DNA from: a virus
Lineage: Duplodnaviria > Heunggongvirae > Uroviricota > Caudoviricetes
Virus record (IMG/VR): IMGVR_UViG_646311924_000019
Direction: 5' to 3' (one strand)
Length of the DNA: 47,189 nt
Shown: positions 1 through 47,189 of the stretch, one piece after another
Layout: each line of letters begins with the position of its first letter
Numbering within the stretch: the first letter of the stretch is position 1
Made by a program: the position numbers and the translations under genes
The notes under the pieces: generated by a model
Told to the model about the DNA's origin: nothing
Seen by the model: the letters and a program-made list of their open reading frames with translations, nothing else
The model's database searches: none

Positions 1-987
1 CTAATTGTGTCTGTCCACATCCCCAAATGTAAAGATATAAGGAGCACCATGATACAGTTGGATCTGATTTACATCCTGTAAATTCTCGTCGATAGCCACC
101 CCTGGAAAATCATGTTGCTGGATAAATCCGTATCCTATGTTAGTCACAGCGGAATACTCTGTGAAATCAGGACTCGCCTCATATCGGTCACTGATCGTAC
201 CCAGTCTTTCGAAGAAAGCCCTCTCATTCTTTTCATGCCTCATGGCAGCCTGTCGAAGGGCATTCAGGTTACGTAGTCTAAGATGAGCTTCTCGTTCTGG
301 CTCTGCATATCCTTTGAAGTCGGGAACACTCCATCCCAACTCTTGAGCGACACGACGTGCGAGAATCTCGGTGGGTCCTAGCTCTATATTACTATCTCCA
401 GATGGATCGCTGGCCCCAGTAACATGATGAATAATCTCGTGAATCAGTCCTTCCTGCCACGATGGCATCTCATAAGAATCAGTATCTGGCGCAACACTAA
501 AACTGACATAAGGCTCTTCGTTCTCGTTTTCTCCTGCCTCGCAAATGGGGAGAATTGGTTCTTTCCCGACATCGTATTCATATAATTCGGTACAGGTTAA
601 TGATTGAATATCATCAACTTTGACAGGGGATTCTTCGTTACGTTCGTATTCGTTTCTGTATTTAATGCTACCAATGTATACTTCCTTATTATGAATGCCA
701 TAGCTTACGGCATCACGAAAGGTCTGTGATCGACTCAAAGCATCAAGTACAGTGTTGCCAATCATATCGACCGTATGCTGATCGATGAGCCTGCTACGGC
801 TGTCATGGACGGCGCGAATGACATTTTCGTATACGTTGCTTAAATCTGCCGCGGAAAGTGGTGTTTGCTTGCCTATATCCAAAACGTAATCCGCATAGGC
901 ATTGTCCGCACGATTTGGGGCAACGGCAGCAGAGTATCCAGCAGGGGCAAAAAAGTTGAAACTAGGCTGGAGAACGGGAATTTTCAT
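1..987 (-). CDS. nleC: Type III secretion effector NleC, zinc metalloprotease
   Basis: 328-aa ORF with ATG start; HEIIHH zinc-protease motif and N-terminus MKIPVLQPSFNF recognised from memory as NleC; sits beyond the tail fibre genes at the prophage end. Confidence 0.85.
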   Translation of the reverse strand: MKIPVLQPSFNFFAPAGYSAAVAPNRADNAYADYVLDIGKQTPLSAADLSNVYENVIRAVHDSRSRLIDQHTVDMIGNTVLDALSRSQTFRDAVSYGIHNKEVYIGSIKYRNEYERNEESPVKVDDIQSLTCTELYEYDVGKEPILPICEAGENENEEPYVSFSVAPDTDSYEMPSWQEGLIHEIIHHVTGASDPSGDSNIELGPTEILARRVAQELGWSVPDFKGYAEPEREAHLRLRNLNALRQAAMRHEKNERAFFERLGTISDRYEASPDFTEYSAVTNIGYGFIQQHDFPGVAIDENLQDVNQIQLYHGAPYIFTFGDVDRHN

Positions 988-18735: not shown

Positions 18736-20317
18736 GTGGTGTTGTCTCCTCTTCCGGCCTGCGACTCTCCGCTATCTGCTGCTGATACGCCTGCGCTATC
18801 CACACCGGGCGTGAGAGTCCGGCTTTTTCCCGCTCTGCAGATTCCCTGACCTGCTGGCGGAAAATGTCCTGATAATCCTCGCCCATCAGCGCCAGCTCTT
18901 TCTCATACGTGCTCAGTCCGGCCTCAATGCGCATCACTGATTCCTGGACTTCCTTGAGCCCGTCAATGGCCATTCTTCCGGCACCAATCCACTCTGCCCG
19001 TGACCAGGCTGATCGCGCCTGATAAAAATCAAAACGTGCCCGTGGCGGACGAATAATCCCCCGAAGAAGTGCCTCTTCCAGCCAGCAGGAAAACATCTGC
19101 GTGGCCAGTCGGGCCGCAATAAATTTTCGCCGCCCCATAAAATAGCGCCACGACTCATTGGCGGAGGCGCGGGCACTTGAGTAACTGACCTTCGAGTAAT
19201 CACGGGACAACTGTTCGTAGGAAACGCCAAGACCGGCGGCGATATACCGCAGCAGCGCCTGTTCAAGCGCCGAAAATCCATTGTCTGAATCCTGCGCTGT
19301 CTGCAGTTTCAGATCATCACCAGGGAAAAGGTGCGGAATTTTGACACCGCCCAGCGTCACGTGATTCGTGTCATACCAGCTGGAGAACTTCTCCAGAATA
19401 TTAATAAGCGGATTATCCTTCTGCTCCTGTGGCGCGCCGGCGATATATTCAAAGGCCTTTTCGGTATCAAGTTCACTTTCAATCGTCGCTGCATACATCG
19501 CCTTCACTATGGCCGACTGAAGCTGTGTTGCCTGCAGGGAATCGAGCATCTTCAGCCGTTCCATGACGCTGTAAAACTGATTAGCCCCACGGGTCTGCCC
19601 GTCCTCCACCGGCTCGAAAATATGCAGCATAGCCGGACGCCCGGTGGGAAGTTCACGCGGGATCCGTTCCCATCGTCCACTACCAGAGAACGGAAAATCA
19701 TCCTCACAAATATGGTACGCGACGGCACGGCCATATCGATCGACCTCCACACCGGCCCGCAGAAAACGGTTCCCCATACCGTGTCCAGGCGTGTCCACCC
19801 GTTTCGGACTCACGGCTTTAAAACGCGTACGGAATAACTGCGTGGTTTCCGTATCCCAGACCGGCTGCACAAAGATTTCGCCGTTAAACGCATGAACGCC
19901 CACACCTTCACGGATAAATTCCGTGAACGTGCGTTTTCCTTCCACGTCGATCTCGCCAGACATCCCTTCGGCGTATTCCGACCAGGCCGCCTCCACCTCA
20001 TCGACAAAGCTTTTTGCTGCGGTCTCCCGCATCCCCAGCCAGCGCCAGTTCGGACGGTAGCTGATCAGAAACATATGCCCGACAATGTGATCCTTATGCA
20101 GAGCCACCGCATTAGCCGCTATTCCGTTATTGCGCACCAGATCATCTGCCCGGGCATTCCCCAGACGCAACGCGGGTAGCAGGGCCGCATCGGCACTCTG
20201 CGCCGGTGGCAACCACTCCGCCATTTGCCCGCCAAATCCTGCACCGCCCCCGTTGTAGCTGAGACTCTCACGAAGCGGAACGCCGTTCACATCAATCAGG
20301 ACAGGCGTTCGTTTCAT
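18725..20317 (-). CDS. B: Portal protein B
   Basis: 530-aa ORF matching lambda gpB. Confidence 0.9.
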   Translation of the reverse strand: MKRTPVLIDVNGVPLRESLSYNGGGAGFGGQMAEWLPPAQSADAALLPALRLGNARADDLVRNNGIAANAVALHKDHIVGHMFLISYRPNWRWLGMRETAAKSFVDEVEAAWSEYAEGMSGEIDVEGKRTFTEFIREGVGVHAFNGEIFVQPVWDTETTQLFRTRFKAVSPKRVDTPGHGMGNRFLRAGVEVDRYGRAVAYHICEDDFPFSGSGRWERIPRELPTGRPAMLHIFEPVEDGQTRGANQFYSVMERLKMLDSLQATQLQSAIVKAMYAATIESELDTEKAFEYIAGAPQEQKDNPLINILEKFSSWYDTNHVTLGGVKIPHLFPGDDLKLQTAQDSDNGFSALEQALLRYIAAGLGVSYEQLSRDYSKVSYSSARASANESWRYFMGRRKFIAARLATQMFSCWLEEALLRGIIRPPRARFDFYQARSAWSRAEWIGAGRMAIDGLKEVQESVMRIEAGLSTYEKELALMGEDYQDIFRQQVRESAEREKAGLSRPVWIAQAYQQQIAESRRPEEETTPRET

Positions 20318-29624: not shown

Positions 29625-30052
29625 AGGTGATTCTCCAGACGAAGACCCAGAACACCGGCAATCTCTTCCAGCACCTTGCGCTCTTCCGGCTCAATTTCGC
29701 CGTCTGCCTCCGCAATGGCCACCGCCACATCCAGCACATCTTCCGCTTCACGCGTATCGTGTTTCACATCCTCGATCTCACGTAACGCGGCACGACGACC
29801 AATTTTAAAATTGGTATCCAGCTGACCGATAATAGTTGCGCTAATCGCATTAATTTCCGAGGTAAACGCAGACAACGCAGGCTGATTACGTAAGACCTGT
29901 TCGATCTTCGCTTTCTCGGATGCCTCGCATTCACCATCTGCATAGGCCACCAGGTATGCAGCGTTAATCACCGCCTGTGCCAGATCGCGTTTCTCAAACT
30001 TTTTAATTTCCGCTGCCGCTCTGCGGGTTTTCTTTTTGAAGATTCCAAACAT
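29621..30052 (-). CDS. TerB-like (tellurite-resistance TerB family) protein
   Basis: 143-aa ORF with two ADGE...E...L motifs typical of TerB-family domains; ATG lies inside the IS66 target duplication. Confidence 0.65.
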   Translation of the reverse strand: MFGIFKKKTRRAAAEIKKFEKRDLAQAVINAAYLVAYADGECEASEKAKIEQVLRNQPALSAFTSEINAISATIIGQLDTNFKIGRRAALREIEDVKHDTREAEDVLDVAVAIAEADGEIEPEERKVLEEIAGVLGLRLENHL

Positions 30053-30139
30053 CGGTAAGCGTAAACTGACCGCCGTATGTAGCCATCAGACGAGAATTGG
30101 TAACTTAGACGCCCATCTGATATAGACGGACATCTAAGT

Positions 30140-30565
30140 ATGGAATTACAGGACTGGCGAAAAGAACCTCGTAAAAACTATTCGAATGAATTCAAACTTC
30201 GTATGGTGGAACTGGCATCACAACCTGGAGCTTGTGTTGCACAGATTGCACGTGAAAATGGCGTCAATGATAATGTTATTTTCAAATGGCTCAGGCTCTG
30301 GCAGAACGAAGGGCGTGTTTCGCGGCGTCTTCCGGTAACGACCTCTTCTGACACTGGCGTTGAATTATTACCTGTAGAAATAACGCCGGATGAGCAGAAA
30401 GAACCTGTGGCGGCCATTGCGCCGTCTTTATCCACTTCCACTCAGACCAGAGTCAGTGCCAGTTCCTGCAAGGTGGAATTCCGTCACGGTAACATGACGC
30501 TGGAAAATCCATCGCCAGAGCTGCTCACGGTGTTGATCCGTGAACTGACCGGGAGGGGAAGATGA
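30140..30565 (+). CDS. IS66-family accessory protein TnpA
   Basis: 141-aa ORF, first gene of the IS66 three-gene layout. Confidence 0.85.
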   Translation: MELQDWRKEPRKNYSNEFKLRMVELASQPGACVAQIARENGVNDNVIFKWLRLWQNEGRVSRRLPVTTSSDTGVELLPVEITPDEQKEPVAAIAPSLSTSTQTRVSASSCKVEFRHGNMTLENPSPELLTVLIRELTGRGR

Positions 30566-30912
30566 TCTCACTCCCATCAGGTACCCGTATCTGGCTCGTT
30601 GCCGGCGTTACCGATATGCGTAAATCCTTCAACGGACTGGGAGAACAGGTACAACATGTGCTGAATGATAATCCCTTCTCCGGTCACCTGTTTATCTTCC
30701 GTGGCCGACGGGGTGACACCGTCAAAATTCTTTGGGCTGATGCTGATGGTCTGTGCCTGTTCACCAAACGCCTGGAGGAAGGCCAGTTTATCTGGCCTGC
30801 GGTACGTGACGGCAAGGTATCCATTACCCGCTCGCAACTGGCAATGCTCCTCGATAAGCTGGACTGGCGTCAGCCAAAAACATCCAGCCGTAACTCACTG
30901 ACAATGTTGTAA
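30562..30912 (+). CDS. IS66-family protein TnpB (Orf2)
   Basis: 116-aa ORF overlapping tnpA stop. Confidence 0.85.
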   Translation: MISLPSGTRIWLVAGVTDMRKSFNGLGEQVQHVLNDNPFSGHLFIFRGRRGDTVKILWADADGLCLFTKRLEEGQFIWPAVRDGKVSITRSQLAMLLDKLDWRQPKTSSRNSLTML

Positions 30913-30942
30913 AAAACTCCTGACCGCATTATAAAAACGGTC

Positions 30943-32556
30943 ATGAGTCAGAAATACCTCATTCGCATCGCAGAGCTGGAAAGGTTGCTCTCTGAGCAGG
31001 CTGAAGCCCTCCGTCAGAAAGACCAGCAACTGAGTCTGGTTGAAGAGACGGAAGCCTTCCTGCGCTCTGCACTGACACGTGCCGAAGAAAAGATCGAAGA
31101 AGATGAACGGGAAATAGAACATCTGCGGGCTCAGATAGAAAAACTGCGCCGGATGCTGTTCGGTACCCGTTCTGAAAAACTGCGTCGTGAAGTTGAACTG
31201 GCTGAGGCTCTGCTGAAACAACGTGAACAGGACAGCGATCGTTACAGTGGGCGGGAAGACGATCCTCAGGTTCCCCGCCAGTTGCGACAGTCGCGCCATC
31301 GTCGTCCGTTACCGGCACACCTTCCCCGTGAAATACACCGCCTGGAGCCAGAAGAAAGCTGTTGCCCGGAGTGTGGCGGTGAGCTGGATTATCTGGGAGA
31401 AGTCAGCGCTGAACAGCTGGAACTGGTGAGCAGTGCCCTGAAAGTGATCCGCACAGAACGGGTAAAAAAAGCCTGTACAAAATGTGACTGTATTGTTGAA
31501 GCACCGGCGCCGTCCCGCCCGATAGAGCGTGGTATCGCGGGCCCCGGATTACTTGCCCGCGTGTTAACGGGAAAATACTGCGAACATCTGCCACTGTATC
31601 GTCAGAGTGAAATCTTTGCCCGCCAGGGTGTCGAACTGAGCCGGGCCTTACTCTCCAACTGGGTTGACGCGTGCTGCCAGTTAATGACACCGGTGAATGA
31701 TGCCCTGTACCGTTATGTGATGAATACCCGCAAGCTTCACACTGACGACACACCGGTAAAGGTACTGGCACCGGGCCTGAAAAAGACGAAAACAGGGCGC
31801 ATCTGGACGTATGTCCGGGATGATCGCAATGCGGGTTCGTCATCTCCTCCGGCGGTCTGGTTCGCGTACTCATCGAACCGGCAGGGGAAACACCCGGAGC
31901 AACACCTCCGCCCCTTCCGGGGTATCCTGCAGGCGGATGCGTTCACAGGTTATGACAGGCTGTTCAGTGCAGAACGTGAAGGTAGTGCGCTGACAGAAGT
32001 TGCGTGCTGGGCTCATGCCCGGAGAAAAATCCACGATGTATACATCAGCAGCAAAAGTGCGACGGCAGAAGAAGCCCTGAAGCGAATCAGTGAACTGTAC
32101 GCCATCGAGGATGAAATACGGGGATTACCAGAATCAGAGCGTCTTGCAGCCAGGCAGCAGCGAAGCAAAGCGTTACTGACGTCGCTGCATGAATGGATGG
32201 TGGAGAAGAATGGCACGCTGTCGAAAAAATCCAGACTGGGCGAAGCGTTCAGCTATGTACTGAATCAGTGGGACGCCCTCTGTTATTACAGTGATGACGG
32301 TCTGGCGGAGGTGGACAATAACACAGCGGAAAGAGCGCTTCGTGCAGTCTGTCTCGGAAAGAAAAATTACGTGTTCTTCGGTAGCGATCACGGCGGCGAG
32401 CGTGGAGCACTGCTGTACGGGCTGAGCGGCACCTGCCGTCTGAACGGTATCGATCCGGAAGCGTATCTGCGCCATATTCTGAGCGTACTGCCGGAATGGC
32501 CCTCCAACCGTGTTGACGAACTCCTGCCATGGAACGTAGTACTCACCAATAAATAA
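30943..32556 (+). CDS. IS66-family transposase TnpC
   Basis: 537-aa ORF with N-terminal leucine zipper, CCPECGG zinc-finger motif and DDE region. Confidence 0.9.
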   Translation: MSQKYLIRIAELERLLSEQAEALRQKDQQLSLVEETEAFLRSALTRAEEKIEEDEREIEHLRAQIEKLRRMLFGTRSEKLRREVELAEALLKQREQDSDRYSGREDDPQVPRQLRQSRHRRPLPAHLPREIHRLEPEESCCPECGGELDYLGEVSAEQLELVSSALKVIRTERVKKACTKCDCIVEAPAPSRPIERGIAGPGLLARVLTGKYCEHLPLYRQSEIFARQGVELSRALLSNWVDACCQLMTPVNDALYRYVMNTRKLHTDDTPVKVLAPGLKKTKTGRIWTYVRDDRNAGSSSPPAVWFAYSSNRQGKHPEQHLRPFRGILQADAFTGYDRLFSAEREGSALTEVACWAHARRKIHDVYISSKSATAEEALKRISELYAIEDEIRGLPESERLAARQQRSKALLTSLHEWMVEKNGTLSKKSRLGEAFSYVLNQWDALCYYSDDGLAEVDNNTAERALRAVCLGKKNYVFFGSDHGGERGALLYGLSGTCRLNGIDPEAYLRHILSVLPEWPSNRVDELLPWNVVLTNK

Positions 32557-32761
32557 GCGTCAATACGGTGCTCCGTTGACGCTTACAAACATCGTGACGT
32601 TCCTTTGGGTGGGTGAGCCAACGCCCGGGAGCGATCTGCCCACAGAGAAAGTCACACTGACCACTCCGTAAGCTCACCCCCGAAAGGCTCTGTGGTTGAT
32701 ATGCGCCGGGCGTGGCGCAGATACAAAAAAGGCCCGCCGAAGCGAGCCTGGAAAATAAGTG

Positions 32762-32838
32762 TGGCGCGTTGTAGTGGAGTCTAACCACTGACCGATTGCT
32801 TAGAAGGCAATTGCTCTGTCCGACTGAGCTAACAACGC
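32762..32838 (-). tRNA. tRNA-Arg (anticodon UCU)
   Basis: 77-nt cloverleaf folded by hand: acceptor GCGTTGT/ACAACGC, anticodon loop CTTCTAA, 3' CCA; unusual T-loop. Confidence 0.7.
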
Positions 32839-32851
32839 ATGATGCTGATAA

Positions 32852-32928
32852 TGGACCGCCATCGGGGACTTGAACCCCGCGCAGCCAGCTTCGAAGGCTG
32901 GCGCTCTGTCCCGATGAGCTAATAGCGG
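32852..32928 (-). tRNA. tRNA-Arg (anticodon UCG)
   Basis: 77-nt cloverleaf folded by hand: anticodon loop CTTCGAA, 3' CCA; acceptor stem begins with C1-G72, which is unusual. Confidence 0.6.
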
Positions 32929-32937
32929 TATGTAATA

Positions 32938-33013
32938 TGGTGGCCCTTGCTGGATTTGAACCAGCGACCTGGCGATTATGAGTCGCTCGCTCTCACCACT
33001 GAGCTAAAGGACC
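32938..33013 (-). tRNA. tRNA with CAU anticodon, Ile2-like (ileZ-type phage tRNA)
   Basis: 76 nt, closely resembles E. coli tRNA-Ile2 as recalled; anticodon loop CTCATAA, 3' CCA. Confidence 0.75.
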
Positions 33014-33041
33014 GAGCCAAAAAATAATAATCAGATGAAAA

Positions 33042-33755
33042 TCAATAATCAAGCCCTTGCCTGGATACATATCTGTCTGGCGGGAAGCCATAATAGCGGT
33101 GAAATACAGAAATAAAGTAGGACCTGCTTGAATAACCGCATTTTTCTGCTATAGCCTGTCCATATCCATGCCGGGAACATAACATATTTACAGCAACACG
33201 CATCCGCTCTTCCAGCAACAAGCGACTGAACATGCCCCCTTCATTTTTCAGTTTTGTCTTTAACAAACTCTCACTCATATGCAACTGTAGAGCAATCGCA
33301 CCAAGCGTCCAGCTTGCTGATATATCTGTCTGAATTATCGCCCTGACTTTGGCACTTATGCTGGATAAACATCCACTTAAAAACAATGACATCCGTTCAT
33401 CTGTTTCAAACAGAGACAGGCAGGCCATCATAAGAAACATATCCGTGACCTCTCCGGAAAATCCCTGGCTGGTAATTAAAGCCGCAGCCAACGCAGGATT
33501 GTTGGGTTCCAGCAACAGGTAAAGCGGAATGTCAGTCAGACGAGTCCTCGTCAGCTTATGCTGACTTTCCAGATATTGACTTACGACGGATTCGCTTATA
33601 TCGACAATTTTAACTTTGCCATAATGCATAAGGAAAAGCTCCCTGATGCATTTGGTGGCCAGAACGACTGAGCCTGGCTTAAGTGACAACGTATCCTTTT
33701 CAAGAAAAATATTAATTGGGGAGCAAACCATGATAACTGAACAGACAACAGCCAT
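33042..33755 (-). CDS. AraC/XylS-family transcriptional regulator (prophage-encoded)
   Basis: 237-aa ORF with C-terminal double helix-turn-helix typical of AraC-family proteins. Confidence 0.8.
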   Translation of the reverse strand: MAVVCSVIMVCSPINIFLEKDTLSLKPGSVVLATKCIRELFLMHYGKVKIVDISESVVSQYLESQHKLTRTRLTDIPLYLLLEPNNPALAAALITSQGFSGEVTDMFLMMACLSLFETDERMSLFLSGCLSSISAKVRAIIQTDISASWTLGAIALQLHMSESLLKTKLKNEGGMFSRLLLEERMRVAVNMLCSRHGYGQAIAEKCGYSSRSYFISVFHRYYGFPPDRYVSRQGLDY

Positions 33756-33876
33756 TATAATTTTACTTTCATTAGCAATTGGTTAGCTCAATTATAGCCC
33801 CAAAAGGTAAATTATCATCAACACATAAGCAAAGGACTGACAGGTGTCGCCCCCCCACCAGCCGCCCATTCACCAC

Positions 33877-33903
33877 AAATAAAAAGCCTTCAGGACTGAA
33901 GGC
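33877..33903 (-). terminator. Intrinsic terminator overlapping the stop of the small HTH gene
   Basis: Hairpin gccttcag/ctgaaggc followed by a T-run on the minus strand. Confidence 0.5.
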
Positions 33904-34087
33904 GTCTGTAACAACCGCACTGATAGTCTGCCAGACCCGCCATAACAAGCTGGGTCAGTATTAACTGGCAGCGTTCGCGTGAAAGGTAAGTATTCTGCGC
34001 AATCTCCCCGACTGTCGCCGGTTCGGTAACGCTTAATTCATTAAACACCACTCTGGCGGTTTCTGTCATATCCTGCTGTTTTAGCAT
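33890..34087 (-). CDS. Small putative DNA-binding protein (helix-turn-helix)
   Basis: 65-aa ORF with ATG start; HTH-like segment ATVGEIAQNTYLSRERCQLIL; own terminator directly after the stop. Confidence 0.5.
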   Translation of the reverse strand: MLKQQDMTETARVVFNELSVTEPATVGEIAQNTYLSRERCQLILTQLVMAGLADYQCGCYRRLQS

Positions 34088-34209
34088 GTCTTTTTTCCCT
34101 TTTGGTTAACGTGACATACCAATAACTCTTGTCCAAAAAGCCAGCAAGCAGAAAGACCGGTATTCGCAACCACCAGCGCATTTAACGCCCCGTGCCGTTT
34201 TTCAGTCAT

Positions 34210-34238
34210 AAAAAAACCCGCAAAAAGCGGGCTCTTTC
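34210..34238 (-). terminator. Strong intrinsic terminator about 100 nt downstream of the Q-like gene (tR'-like)
   Basis: Hairpin gcccgc/gcgggt with TTTTT loop followed by 7 T on the minus strand. Confidence 0.6.
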
Positions 34239-34310
34239 AAATGTCCATGTCTGCTATTCGCCTCGCGGTACAGCTTTGCGAAGCGTACCGGAATTGAAGC
34301 AGTTTTTACG

Positions 34311-34877
34311 TCAAAAAGCAATAACTTTTTTATCTATACCAAAAGCCATAACCATTGGTTTGTACAAAATAAATTCTGCCACCTTTAGCCAATGCTCAAT
34401 GCGTCTTTCACAGGTTCTTAAACTCCATTCCGGATGTGCATCATTCAGCAGTTCAGCCATTTTGCGCTTAGTCATCCCCCGCCCCACATAACGCTGACTC
34501 AGAACATTGAGCAGCCCGGGATAACCTGCCAGTACTTCACCAATAACCCTGTCGATTATTAACGCCTCTGAATCGGTACAATGTGCCAGCCAGCTTTTTT
34601 GATTGCCGTTGATCATATCCCGCAAAAAAGCCTCAAGTTCAGGTTTGTCCAGACCCGCTTTTTTCATCCTCCGGAGCGCCTCGTTAATTGCCGTTTTTGT
34701 CAGCTTTTTAGAGGTCAGTAATTGGTTGAACATATTTCCCGTCTTACCGTCGCCAATATACGACCAACGCCCCCACATACGCAGTTTCCCCTGGATCCAG
34801 ACACTTTCCAGCGTTTTCAGGCGTAAATGCTCACCGCTTTTGCCTGTAATTTCCGGGTATATCATATTTATGCTCAC
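34311..34877 (-). CDS. Late-gene antitermination protein Q-like
   Basis: Positioned directly after rusA and before a short-transcript terminator; WGRW motif reminiscent of Q-family proteins; likely true start is the ATG at about 34865. Confidence 0.5.
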   Translation of the reverse strand: MSINMIYPEITGKSGEHLRLKTLESVWIQGKLRMWGRWSYIGDGKTGNMFNQLLTSKKLTKTAINEALRRMKKAGLDKPELEAFLRDMINGNQKSWLAHCTDSEALIIDRVIGEVLAGYPGLLNVLSQRYVGRGMTKRKMAELLNDAHPEWSLRTCERRIEHWLKVAEFILYKPMVMAFGIDKKVIAF

Positions 34878-37154: not shown

Positions 37155-37310
37155 TTACTTCTCAGATTCGTAGTCTACGAAGACAGCGACCTCCGTCTGA
37201 CCGGTTCGGATTCGCACCTCGCAGAGGTCTTTCCTCGTTACCAGTGCCGTCACTATGACGGTTAAACAGATGACGATCAGGGCGATTAACATCGCCTTTT
37301 GCTGCTTCAT
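37155..37310 (-). CDS. hok: Hok/Gef-family type I toxin (HokD/RelF-like)
   Basis: 51 aa MKQQKAMLIALIVICLTVIVTALVTRKDLCEVRIRTGQTEVAVF...; the track ORF 37155-37367 is an in-frame upstream extension. Confidence 0.85.
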   Translation of the reverse strand: MKQQKAMLIALIVICLTVIVTALVTRKDLCEVRIRTGQTEVAVFVDYESEK

Positions 37311-37600
37311 AGCCTGCTTCTCCTTGCCTTTCGGCACGTAAGAGGCTAACCTACATGTGTTCAGCATGGATTGAGCCTCAGATTAATGTTAAGCGTCTTG
37401 CAGGACGCGTAATGTTAACTGGGGCTTTTCTCTATCTGCCGTTGGTGTTCATGCCCGAGGCAGATAGCCTCAAGCACCCGCTGCAATTCTACTTAACTAT
37501 CCTTTTCCCGCAAACCGTTTTTATCCCCAGCGGCAAATCGAATACTCCACCAGCGCCACCGCCATCGCAATTCCTACCGTTGTGAATGCTTCAGGCCAGG

Positions 37601-44805: not shown

Positions 44806-44863
44806 TTTCTGGTGACGTTTGGCGGTATCAGTTTTACTCCGTGGCTGCTCTGCCGCCCTTTTT
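44806..44863 (+). ncRNA. dicF: DicF small RNA
   Basis: tttctggtgacgtttggcggtatcagttttactccgtggctgctctgccgcccttttt matches the DicF sRNA as recalled (one mismatch), including its terminator. Confidence 0.8.
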
Positions 44864-45975: not shown

Positions 45976-46866
45976 TCAGGCTGCCAGATCATCGTTTCCG
46001 ATGGAAGCATAATAAGCTTTTTCTGCTTCTGCCGGAGGAGTATGGCCCAGCCTTCCCAGCAATCGTCGATTGTTATACCAGTCCACCCACGTTAGTGTGG
46101 CCAGTTCCACTTCTGCACGGTTTTTCCAGCTCTTACGGTGTATTACCTCCGCTTTGTAAAGACCATTGATGCTCTCAGCCATCGCGTTGTCATACGAGTC
46201 GCCTGTACTCCCTGTTGATGCCAGTAATCCGGCTTCTTTTAGTCGCTCCGTATAGGCCAGTGACACATACTGAGAGCCTTTATCGCTGTGATGGATGGTG
46301 CCAGACGGACGACGGGCCCACAACGCCTGCTCCAGCGCATCCAGCACGAATGTCGTTTCCATAGACGATGAGACCCGCCACCCCACGATGTATCCGGCAA
46401 ACACATCAATGATAAACGCCACATAGACGAAGCCCTGCCATGTGCTGACGTAAGTAAAATCAGCCACCCACAGCTGGTCAGGTCGTTCTGCCACGAACTG
46501 ACGGTTTACGCGGTCGCCTGCGGCAACGGCTTTCCGGCTGATGGTCGTACGGACCTTTTTACCCCGGAGAACACCGGCAAGTCCCATAACCGCCATGAGA
46601 CGTGCCACTGTACATCTGGCCACCCTGATTCCTTCCCGTAACAACTGACGCCAGACTTTACGCACACCGTACACCTGATGATTTTCATCGTATACGCGCT
46701 GTATCTCTCTCTTCAGCCAGTCGTCGTGCTGCGCACGGGCACTGCGTTTATCCGGATGATGTCGCTGTTGCTGACAATGGTAATACGTTGACGGGGCAAT
46801 ATGCAGTTCGCTGCATACCGGTCCGACCCCGTACTGCTCACGCAGCTTATCCAGCAGTGGCATCAT
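45976..46866 (-). CDS. IS3-family transposase OrfB (DDE catalytic domain)
   Basis: 296-aa ORF in the -1 frame relative to orfA. Confidence 0.85.
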
Positions 46867-47189
46867 TTTTTCCAGAGGCGGTCGAACTCCGCCTTCGCAA
46901 AATAAGCGGAAGCCTGGCGAAGGATATCGTTACTGCGGCGCAGTTCACGATTTTCACGTTCCAGCTCTTTCAGACGCTGACGTTCAGCGCTGGTGAGCCC
47001 ACCATCACCGCCCCCGGTATCCCGCTCATGCTGGCGAACCCAGACACGCAGAGTCTCCGGCGTACAGCCAATCTTTGGGGCAATGGAACAAATTGCCGCC
47101 CACTGTGAGTCATATTCATCCTGACTTTCCAGAACCATACGAATCGCCCGCTGACGGACTTCGGGGGAAAAACGAGTATTTTTAGTCAT
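46863..47189 (-). CDS. IS3-family transposase OrfA (HTH, leucine zipper)
   Basis: 108-aa [18 protein letters not shown]...; A6 run at the orfA/orfB overlap suggests a -1 frameshift to make OrfAB. Confidence 0.85.

Follow-up and report, generated by a model that had tools for sequence, protein, structure and literature searches.

The gene at positions 33042..33755 (minus strand) of the window, by which we mean the whole stretch of 47,189 nucleotides analysed here (IMGVR_UViG_646311924_000019), encodes a 237-aa regulator of the AraC/XylS family and is, judged by its identity to Sakai ECs_2191, the O111 ortholog of psrB, the gene for prophage-encoded secretion regulator B (reviewed in PMC10877973, PMC8565820). 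We consider it very probable that this psrB is a moron in the leader of a phage late operon, swapped for a methylase gene behind a tR'-type terminator. The regulator is already known, and the locus is real but ordinary.

The locus and its prophage

Read on the minus strand, the locus runs from a Q-like gene through a hairpin, a 65-aa open reading frame (ORF), a weaker hairpin and the 237-aa AraC-type gene to three tRNAs, all of them where the initial annotation of this DNA had placed them. The tRNAs (32762..33013, minus strand; ARAGORN, with Rfam tRNA scores of 56-69 bits) form a cluster of the ileZ-argN-argO type: Ile2 (CAT), Arg (TCG) and Arg (TCT). The first of them, tRNA-Ile in the RefSeq annotation, starts 28 nt beyond the psrB stop codon. 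Between the 3' end of psrB and the tRNAs, neither the terminator scan nor folding found a terminator; the first one predicted 3' of psrB follows the tRNAs (32730..32749, minus strand), with an 8-bp stem comprising six G-C pairs, a T6 run and a folding energy of -15.6 kcal/mol (z = -2.7 against shuffled sequence). Both genes had been described as fenced by terminators. The small ORF does lie between two hairpins, but no such structure closes the AraC gene on its 3' side. Within the 3' end of psrB, about 10 nt 5' of tRNA-Ile, a consensus scan gave a promoter-like site, TTGATT-17-TATTAT (33024..33052, minus strand), which is kept in Sakai Sp4 and phiSTEC1575 and may act as a promoter. Besides the neighbouring tRNAs, an Rfam scan of 33042-34310 gave no match.

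The prophage that carries psrB is a defective lambdoid one. It comprises, as had been noted, nleC (1-987, minus strand; Peptidase_M85, 1e-111) and a PerC/Pch-family gene (23643-23957, minus strand; 5.4e-44). An IS66-family element interrupts its late operon just 3' of the tRNAs, and int and exo are pseudogenes in the prophage of a sister strain. Because of this insertion and of these pseudogenes, induction-dependent expression from this prophage may no longer occur.

Identity of the regulator

The AraC-type protein is identical to ECs_2191 of Sakai prophage Sp11 at 235 of 237 positions (99.2%), and the two differences, H196Y and I202V, both occur elsewhere in the psr family. Over the 2.2-kb module from Q to the tRNAs, the DNA is 97.5% identical to that of Sp11. 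This prophage carries nleG2-3, nleG6-2 and nleG5-2, which correspond to z2149-z2151 of O-island 57 (OI-57), an island also encoding PsrB, as z2104 (PMC8565820). ECs_2191 shares 215 of its 237 residues (90.7%) with ECs_1087, named psrA (PMC13502914), while the published identity between PsrA and PsrB is 90% (PMC10877973, PMC8565820). From the island content and this 90% figure we deduce that ECs_2191 is probably Z2104 of OI-57 in strain EDL933. It is the match to ECs_2191, on the Sakai equivalent of the island encoding PsrB, together with 91% identity to PsrA, that makes the gene of the window a psrB ortholog. The homology search thus confirmed the Psr/PatE-type relationship that had been proposed for it, the protein of the PatE locus being more distant (37%).

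In O157, PsrB binds the promoters of gadE and hdeA, with an increase in GAD acid resistance as the outcome, and it lowers LEE type III secretion indirectly, via GadE and YhiF (PMC10877973, PMC8565820). The O111 protein would be expected to act in the same way. One to four copies of psr are found in 724 of 5426 complete E. coli genomes; in Sakai, the gene is absent from prophages Sp6 and Sp10. Another member of the cluster, P0174, was considered as the O157 PsrB and rejected: its N-terminal half resembles the window, its C-terminal half PsrA, and the chimeric DNA query led to O103:H2 strains.

The profiles HTH_AraC (PF00165; 2.4e-13, 50.3 bits for a cutoff of 26.6) and HTH_18 (PF12833; 5.8e-10, 39.8 bits for a cutoff of 33.6) both match the protein, which belongs to phrog_1450 (8.8e-99). 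Its C-terminal DNA-binding domain, with two intact helix-turn-helix motifs, is that of the AraC/XylS family: residues 134-233 align with the domain of GadX (3mkl) with a single one-residue gap over 100 residues (E 7e-19), so that the intact motif assumed in the initial annotation is present and, indeed, double. The model of this domain shows seven helices at a pLDDT of 80-94; that of the N-terminal domain is of low confidence (pLDDT 44-76). In NCBIfam the protein is closest to YdeO, which aligns along its whole length (5.7e-31), and then to GadX; its scores stay far below both equivalog cutoffs (108 vs 348 bits for YdeO, 87.3 vs 500 bits for GadX). The nearest solved structures are those of GadX, Rns, CsvR and ToxT. 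The psrB product is described here as a putative YdeO/GadX-like activator of the AraC family.

A candidate sigma-70-type promoter for psrB, ATGATA-16-TATAAT, was found by consensus scan at 33791..33818 (minus strand; 10 of 12 positions matching). It lies in a stretch of 39% G+C and is kept in Sakai Sp4 and phiSTEC1575; if its position is right, psrB would be a moron with its own promoter between Q and the ileZ-argN-argO tRNAs. The gene itself has a G+C content of 43.8%, vs 52.3% for the window. A search of the promoter region for an operator-like inverted repeat was negative.

The small gene and the methyltransferase

The 65-aa ORF (33890..34087, minus strand) is a member of phrog_331 (2.1e-37), a family with no function assigned in PHROG. 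It is a real protein-coding gene under purifying selection. That it is conserved, as had been supposed, is evident from its 302 homologs across Escherichia, Salmonella, Klebsiella, Citrobacter and Buttiauxella, with at least 78% identity among the 120 matches listed. Taken together, lambdoid prophages of at least 10 enterobacterial genera have this protein, 63-65 aa long, encoded behind the late terminator. The dN/dS ratio is 0.04-0.14 in comparison with SfV, Stx2a_1447 and phiSTEC1575. An AlphaFold2 model (pLDDT 90.2) confidently predicts a winged helix of topology H1-b1-H2-H3-b2-b3, b2 and b3 making the wing, with helices at residues 4-16, 26-33 and 37-49 and strands at 53-56 and 59-62. Foldseek matches to the model come from O-methyltransferases and from regulators of the IclR and MarR types, in each case from their winged-helix domains (TM 0.7-0.8, but E only around 1e-3). 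The gene is a 'hypothetical protein' in RefSeq. Many of its relatives are named 'TrmB family transcriptional regulator' by NCBI. With Pfam TrmB (PF01978) the score of the protein encoded here is 18.3 bits (E 0.0021), below the gathering cutoff of 25.6, and there is no match in NCBIfam. The Sp11 copy is intact and 98.5% identical; in Sakai Sp4, by contrast, a 1-bp deletion results in a 79-aa frameshifted product with the wing replaced.

Among 19 enterobacterial species loci with the small gene, 18 have an N6/N4 DNA methyltransferase gene 3' of it, and the pairing of the two is found behind three unrelated families of Q. The small ORF is also followed by the methyltransferase in SfV, mEp460, cdtI-type phages and Stx2a phages, including Stx2a_1447. 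The methyltransferase is its usual 3' neighbour: the small gene is half of a widespread module of winged-helix protein and DNA methyltransferase and not a partner specific to psrB. The initial annotation had seen it as regulatory cargo together with the AraC gene, a proposal that we abandon in favour of the methyltransferase module. The stretch homologous to the Stx2a phages and SfV takes in the terminator and the small ORF with its hairpin and ends at about 33854; homology restarts at the tRNAs. Past 33854, likeness to the phages that carry the methylase decays over some 30 nt. This endpoint puts the candidate psrB promoter inside the swapped cassette, while about 60 nt 3' of the small-ORF hairpin are kept whether methylase or psr follows. 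The methylase half has been replaced by psr with its candidate promoter, the small winged-helix gene being left behind.

The late leader and its two hairpins

The Q-like gene (34311..34877, minus strand; 188 aa) is a late antiterminator gene of the DUF1133 type according to Pfam and PHROG profiles: DUF1133 at 3.7e-105, Phage_antitermQ at 6e-08 (33.1 bits, cutoff 26) and phrog_753, 'anti-termination protein Q-like', at 1.2e-80. Its product is 99.5% identical to ECs_2193 of Sakai Sp11 and 95.7% to ECs_1958 of Sp10. The region that follows (34239..34320, minus strand), read from the sequence by analogy with lambda and the Stx phages, could hold the late promoter PR', with its qut region, and the start of the leader. 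A candidate PR', TTGCTT-17-TTCAAT, overlaps the Q stop codon and is followed by TACGCT, which by eye resembles a -10 hexamer. The hexamers are weak (four of six matches each), and a consensus promoter scan did not find this candidate. The Q-proximal leader differs from that of Sp10 by two substitutions only, to about 65 nt beyond the Q stop, where the likeness breaks off just 5' of the terminator; in Sp11 it is 99% identical. This near-identity means that the leader travels with the Q gene.

The terminator (34210..34238, minus strand) is a strong predicted intrinsic one, some 75-100 nt beyond the Q stop; on the 5' side, the conserved small-ORF module begins with it. Its hairpin (34238-34210), AAAGAGCCCGC-UUUUU-GCGGGUUUUUUU followed by a U-run, folds at -18.2 kcal/mol (z = -4.0), a value equalled by one of 200 shuffles; the simple consensus terminator scan had not listed it. 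A hairpin at the same position, with other bases in stem and loop, occurs in SfV, Stx2a_1447, Sakai Sp4 and phiSTEC1575, as well as in roughly one in two of the species-level loci. In SfV the matching position is annotated 'putative rho-independent terminator'. In Stx phages, a terminator just after Q belongs to the PR'-tR' layout (PMC7547250). This shared position, the SfV annotation and a leader inherited with Q suggest that the hairpin is best read as a tR'-type terminator of a Q-dependent late promoter. In lysogens, transcription from that promoter would end at it, leaving a short leader RNA. Since it stands at the place of tR' in lambdoid phages, polymerase modified by Q would read through it, so that after induction transcription would pass both hairpins and continue across the small ORF and psrB into the tRNAs. 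We also considered the post-Q leader as the counterpart of HnrS, a 66-nt sRNA identical in Sakai Sp9, Sp10 and Sp12 (PMC13502914). This was dropped as unsupported: Sp12 has another type of Q, hence another Q-proximal leader, and yet an identical HnrS.

The second hairpin (33886..33903, minus strand) came from the terminator scan and lies, with a T5 run, over the small-ORF stop codon. It is weak and lineage-specific. Its 7-bp stem folds at -11.2 kcal/mol (z = -1.7), and nine of 200 shuffles fold equally well. Under strict criteria it is present in two of 20 species loci, the two nearest to E. coli: one from E. albertii, the other from a contig labelled Bacillus MAG and 97% identical. It is also present in SfV, Stx2a_1447, Sakai Sp4 and phiSTEC1575.

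Other ways to read the locus

The two hairpins, both with U-runs, might be thought to insulate independently transcribed genes, neither of them ever read from the phage late promoter. The good promoter match of psrB would fit such an arrangement, as would the inactive phage programme suggested in this strain by the IS66-family insertion and the int and exo pseudogenes. We find it unlikely, because the first hairpin is where Q overrides termination in lambdoid phages, the second is weak and was absent in 18 of 20 species loci when strict criteria were applied, and psrB lacks a terminator and leads directly into the tRNAs. The view of the terminators as fences around independent units, implied in the initial annotation, falls with it. 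It is improbable, too, that the winged-helix protein and the AraC regulator make a dedicated two-gene unit acquired as one cargo, in which the small protein would control psrB or work jointly with its product. In favour, the two genes lie side by side in the same orientation in the window, in Sakai Sp11, in Sp4 and in phiSTEC1575-Stx2k, the small gene is intact in Sp11, and some 60 nt past its hairpin are conserved in methylase and psr contexts alike. Yet the small gene is far more widespread than psr, its neighbour in nearly all species loci, as in SfV, mEp460, cdtI-type and Stx2a phages, is a methyltransferase, and the search of the psrB promoter region gave no operator-like repeat; furthermore, O157 psrA is reported to be functional (PMC10877973, PMC8565820) in spite of the frameshifted small gene that precedes it in Sp4.

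That the AraC-type protein would serve the phage, as a regulator of late genes or of the choice between lysis and lysogeny, and not act on host genes, we find scarcely credible. The gene does lie in the late-operon leader just after Q, and it is present in an active Stx2k phage. However, SfV, mEp460 and Stx2a phages are viable with a methyltransferase in this slot, which argues that the slot holds dispensable cargo; the low G+C content of psrB and its candidate promoter set it apart; and the near-identical O157 protein has published host targets, gadE and hdeA (PMC10877973). We therefore retain the moron swapped for a methylase as the preferred reading. There might be more to the small protein: it could regulate whatever cargo fills the next slot, gating psrB and the tRNAs or altering read-through of the late leader. 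We regard this as doubtful. If true, a winged-helix protein would link the state of the phage to the switch between acid resistance and type III secretion in the host.

What the locus adds

The main value of this analysis is in annotation: the 'helix-turn-helix domain-containing protein' of RefSeq can be named psrB, and it is reasonable to extend the published role of PsrB to O111 and the 724 psr-positive complete E. coli genomes. It also shows how the gene arrived, as a promoter-bearing psr cassette taking the place of a DNA methyltransferase in a conserved module of the late leader. The current understanding of EHEC regulation is unchanged.

Comparison with known systems

The leader of the Stx phages, with its PR'-tR' layout and the StxS sRNA (PMC7547250), resembles the present one in that a terminator comes shortly 3' of Q, ahead of tRNAs and cargo. 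As there, a short terminated leader RNA would be made in lysogens. The two differ in the family of Q and in leader sequence: StxS correlates with a Q of 144 aa, and the Q of the window is of another type. The region taken by psr is the one that holds stx in toxin phages. The module of SfV offers another comparison: there, Q and a terminator are followed by orf47-orf48, a small ORF and an N6/N4 DNA methyltransferase gene. Its small protein shares 94% identity with the one encoded here, and the two modules agree in having a terminator before the ORF and a hairpin after it, at the same spacing. Unlike in SfV, psrB with its putative promoter occupies the place of the methyltransferase, and what follows is the tRNAs, against a holin gene in SfV.

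Among regulators, YdeO and GadX are AraC-type regulators of the GAD system encoded in the core genome. The DNA-binding domain of GadX is 41-42% identical to that of psrB (TM 0.88-0.90), and over the full length the protein is matched best, in structure, by regulators of the Rns type (E around 1e-10). PatE (Z0321 of OI-8, presumed to be ECs_0287 of Sakai Sp1) is a prophage AraC-type activator of acid-resistance genes (PMC10877973). It aligns over its full length, from residue 1; at 37% identity we rejected orthology and place it on a related but separate branch. Its context also differs from that of psrB, being neither behind Q nor beside tRNAs.

PsrA (ECs_1087 of Sakai Sp4, Z1789 in the reviews) has the same length as our protein and differs from it at 22 positions, 17 of which fall in residues 1-123. 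Its gene likewise lies after Q and before ileZ-argN-argO, with the same conserved promoter candidate, and Sp4, too, has a pch gene and effector genes beside psr. Sp4 differs from the present prophage by its other type of Q, an inserted CAAX-protease gene and the frameshift in the small ORF. The closest counterpart is the PsrB locus of Sakai Sp11. The host is O111 here, not O157, an IS66-family element follows the tRNAs, and argN is recognisable, whereas it is not annotated in Sp11. The flanks match throughout, with DUF968, RusA, the DUF1133-type Q, the 65-aa ORF, the tRNAs and a TerB-family gene, and in Sp11, as here, a pch gene and effector genes accompany psrB.

Gene order around the Q-like gene

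The prophage is lambdoid and integrated beside tRNA-Ser and mtfA in an EHEC O111 host, where a 1.7-kb region of the locus is 100% identical in dozens of complete O111:H8 and O111:H- genomes. In strain 110512 it is defective, as its integrase and exonuclease genes are truncated. The minus strand carries all genes of the locus. The DUF968 and RusA genes come first, followed by the Q-like gene (188 aa, 34311-34877), a first hairpin (34238-34210, scored by folding energy against shuffles), an ORF of 65 aa (33890-34087), a second hairpin (33903-33886), an AraC-type ORF of 237 aa (33042-33755), tRNA-Ile2 (CAT), tRNA-Arg (TCG) and tRNA-Arg (TCT) (33013-32762), and a terminator after the third tRNA (32749-32730). 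The Q-like protein matches DUF1133 (3.7e-105), Phage_antitermQ above its cutoff, and phrog_753, 'anti-termination protein Q-like'. All features of the initial annotation are thus present, as are the two other genes it had placed in this prophage, nleC (1-987; Peptidase_M85, 1e-111) and a PerC/Pch gene (23643-23957).

An IS66-family element (ISEc47-like in RefSeq; about 30055-32586, transposase genes at 30140-30565, 30562-30912 and 30943-32556 on the plus strand) sits at the exact start codon of a minus-strand TerB-family gene (29621-30052) and is bordered by a target duplication of 8 bp, CGATGTTT. The Sakai prophages Sp10, Sp11 and Sp12 are uninterrupted there. The insertion, slightly downstream of the stx position in toxin phages, cuts the late operon between Q, psrB and the tRNAs on one side and its remaining genes on the other. 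Strain 110512 has IS1203 in its lysis region (28350-29563 of the compared locus); the window lacks it at about 26200-26300, hence a coordinate offset of 1312 bp. The window thus derives from another O111 isolate or from one free of this IS1203 copy. Elsewhere in the prophage, matches at Rfam gathering score are STnc100 sRNA (29280-29452(-)), sok antitoxin RNA beside a hok gene (37305-37479(-)), DicF sRNA (44807-44858(+)) and an ALIL frameshift pseudoknot belonging to an element of the IS3 family (46792-46908(-)).

The AraC-type regulator

Both AraC-type HTH motifs of the 237-aa protein score above the Pfam cutoffs, and its DNA-binding domain aligns over 100 residues with the solved GadX domain (E 7e-19, 41-42% identity) with one single-residue gap, so that the HTH is intact. 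YdeO is the best full-length relative in NCBIfam (5.7e-31, residues 1-229), far under the equivalog cutoff. The proposal that the protein belongs with the Psr/PatE-type regulators is borne out, and can be refined. It shares 37% identity with ECs_0287 of Sp1, the presumed PatE locus, and 91% (215/237) with ECs_1087, which is named psrA in PMC13502914 and fills the corresponding slot of Sp4. With ECs_2191 of Sp11 identity reaches 99.2% (235/237; H196Y and I202V), and the 2.2-kb module from Q to the tRNAs is 97.5% identical to Sp11 in DNA throughout. Sp11 contains nleG2-3, nleG6-2 and nleG5-2, which are z2149-z2151 of OI-57, the EDL933 island that also encodes PsrB, z2104 (PMC8565820). ECs_2191 and ECs_1087 are 90.7% identical, in agreement with the 90% published for PsrA and PsrB (PMC10877973; PMC8565820). 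Because of the identity to ECs_2191, the shared content of Sp11 and OI-57, and this figure, the gene is, as judged from sequence, very probably psrB of O111.

At least 1000 contigs in the protein collection encode exactly this protein. Of 5426 complete E. coli genomes, 724 hold psr-family genes, at one to four copies each (median two); their alleles are mosaic and under moderate purifying selection (dN/dS 0.23-0.46).

Terminators, promoters and the late leader

In lambdoid phages, transcripts from the Q-dependent late promoter PR' end shortly past Q at a terminator, tR'. The first hairpin, AAAGAGCCCGC-UUUUU-GCGGGUUUUUUU, is found at this position, about 75-100 nt past the Q stop codon (-18.2 kcal/mol, z = -4.0 against dinucleotide shuffles), and the SfV annotation has a terminator at the equivalent position. 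The Q 3' end and some 65 nt beyond it hardly differ between the window, Sp10 and Sp11; similarity ends just before the terminator, where stem and loop differ while hairpin and U-run are kept. Such a pattern would be expected if a unit of Q-cognate promoter and Q-loading site (qut) were attached to a downstream module that can be exchanged. A candidate PR', TTGCTT-17-TTCAAT, is a weak match. About half of the species-level loci that carry the small ORF have, under strict criteria, a hairpin 105-149 nt upstream of it, with differing stems. Window 34239-34320, the DUF1133-type Q end plus some 65 nt, shows two substitutions against Sp10 (19560-19640 of the compared locus), with a recombination joint just before the terminator.

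The leader RNA of about 75 nt that would end at this terminator could be a by-product sRNA like StxS, which derives from the terminated leader of Stx phages (PMC7547250). We found no support for the leader RNA past Q being HnrS.

The second hairpin, a 7-bp stem with T5 over the stop codon of the small ORF, is far weaker than the first (-11.2 kcal/mol, z = -1.7), and strict criteria retain it in only 2 of 20 species loci, those of E. albertii and of a single contig that is nearly identical. The two genes had been described as fenced by terminators, which is partly wrong. Hairpins do flank the small ORF, but the stop codon of the AraC-type gene (33042) is followed by tRNA-Ile (33013) with no terminator in between; the next one lies past the third tRNA. 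Ahead of psrB, a good sigma-70 match (ATGATA-16-TATAAT, 33818-33791) is conserved in Sp4 and phiSTEC1575-Stx2k; a promoter-like site also occurs within the psrB 3' end, ahead of tRNA-Ile.

The tRNA region is only 87.7% identical to that of Sp11, with flanks at 98-100%. In tRNA-Arg (TCT) (32762-32838(-)) the T-loop reads TTAGACT against TTCGAAT in the Sp4 and Stx2k-phage copies; the normally invariant C56 is A, with a compensating base-pair swap in the T-stem. Both ARAGORN and Rfam (66.7 bits) nonetheless recognise a tRNA here.

The small winged-helix gene and its usual partner

Conservation marks the 65-aa ORF as a real gene, a member of phrog_331, a family of unknown function. It has 302 homologs, with 78-100% identity among the 120 matches listed (Escherichia, Salmonella, Klebsiella, Citrobacter, Buttiauxella and others) and dN/dS of 0.04-0.14. 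Among 1.84 billion proteins there are just 62 matching representative clusters, so the family is narrow. The AlphaFold2 model is confident (pLDDT 90.2) and predicts a classic winged-helix topology, for which Foldseek returns the winged-helix domains of IclR, MarR/OhrR and O-methyltransferases (TM 0.7-0.8). On this model the label 'winged helix' is justified; 'TrmB family' is not warranted, the Pfam TrmB match being below cutoff. Residue 57 (33917-33919(-)), in the first strand of the predicted wing and adjoining invariant Cys59, is Cys in O111 and Phe in nearly all homologs (YQCGC against YQFGC).

The reading of this gene as psr-specific cargo has to be abandoned. A DNA methyltransferase comes next in SfV (orf47-orf48), mEp460 and Stx2a phages, and an N6_N4 methyltransferase of roughly 350 aa lies about 150 nt past the small ORF in 18 of the 19 readable species-level loci, which include E. 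albertii, Kluyvera, Salmonella, Citrobacter, Klebsiella, Enterobacter and Proteus. In lambdoid prophages across Enterobacterales the pair lies in the leader of the late operon, downstream of Q genes that fall into three unrelated Pfam families. It is a conserved two-gene module, apparently of undescribed function. The window shares with SfV and Stx2a_1447 a block comprising the first terminator, the small ORF and its hairpin, up to about 33854. Past this point the cargo is unrelated, psr and its promoter in the window, the methylase in the two phages, and homology with Stx2a_1447 returns at tRNA-Ile. By this alignment psr is a cassette, with its own putative promoter, that has displaced the methylase.

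The Sp4 copy of the small gene, ECs_1086 (28344-28583 of the compared locus), beside psrA, has a 1-bp deletion, and its product of 79 aa has a scrambled C-terminus without the wing; the Sp11 copy, ECs_2192, is intact. As psrA in Sp4 is reported functional, the small gene seems not to be required for Psr function.

Proposed working and relation to known systems

PsrA and PsrB induce GadE and YhiF, with repression of type III secretion as the outcome; PsrB binds the promoter of gadE and, from -132 to -45, that of hdeA, increases acid resistance and aids passage through the mouse stomach (reviewed in PMC10877973; PMC8565820). From the sequence facts obtained here we infer a transcript structure for the psrB locus, its targets being those of this literature. 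In the lysogen, the transcript from the Q-proximal promoter would end at 34210, while psrB would be transcribed from its own promoter at a low level, probably silenced, into the tRNAs, to stop at 32730; PsrB would then activate gadE and hdeA. If Q is made, polymerase would pass both hairpins, and the small gene, psrB and the tRNAs would be expressed together.

G+C content is 43.8% in psrB and 39% in its promoter region, against 52.3% in the window. Repression of Hha by the sRNA HnrS raises psrA and gadE (PMC13502914), and silencing of the A+T-rich psr locus by H-NS and Hha would fit this effect. Earlier work has described the psr family, where it lies in prophages, and how it is associated with pch and effector genes (PMC10877973; PMC8565820). 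Neither the psrB gene nor its position here is new; RefSeq leaves the gene unnamed, and the sole uncharacterised element of the locus is the small winged-helix gene, with its near-universal pairing to a phage methyltransferase.
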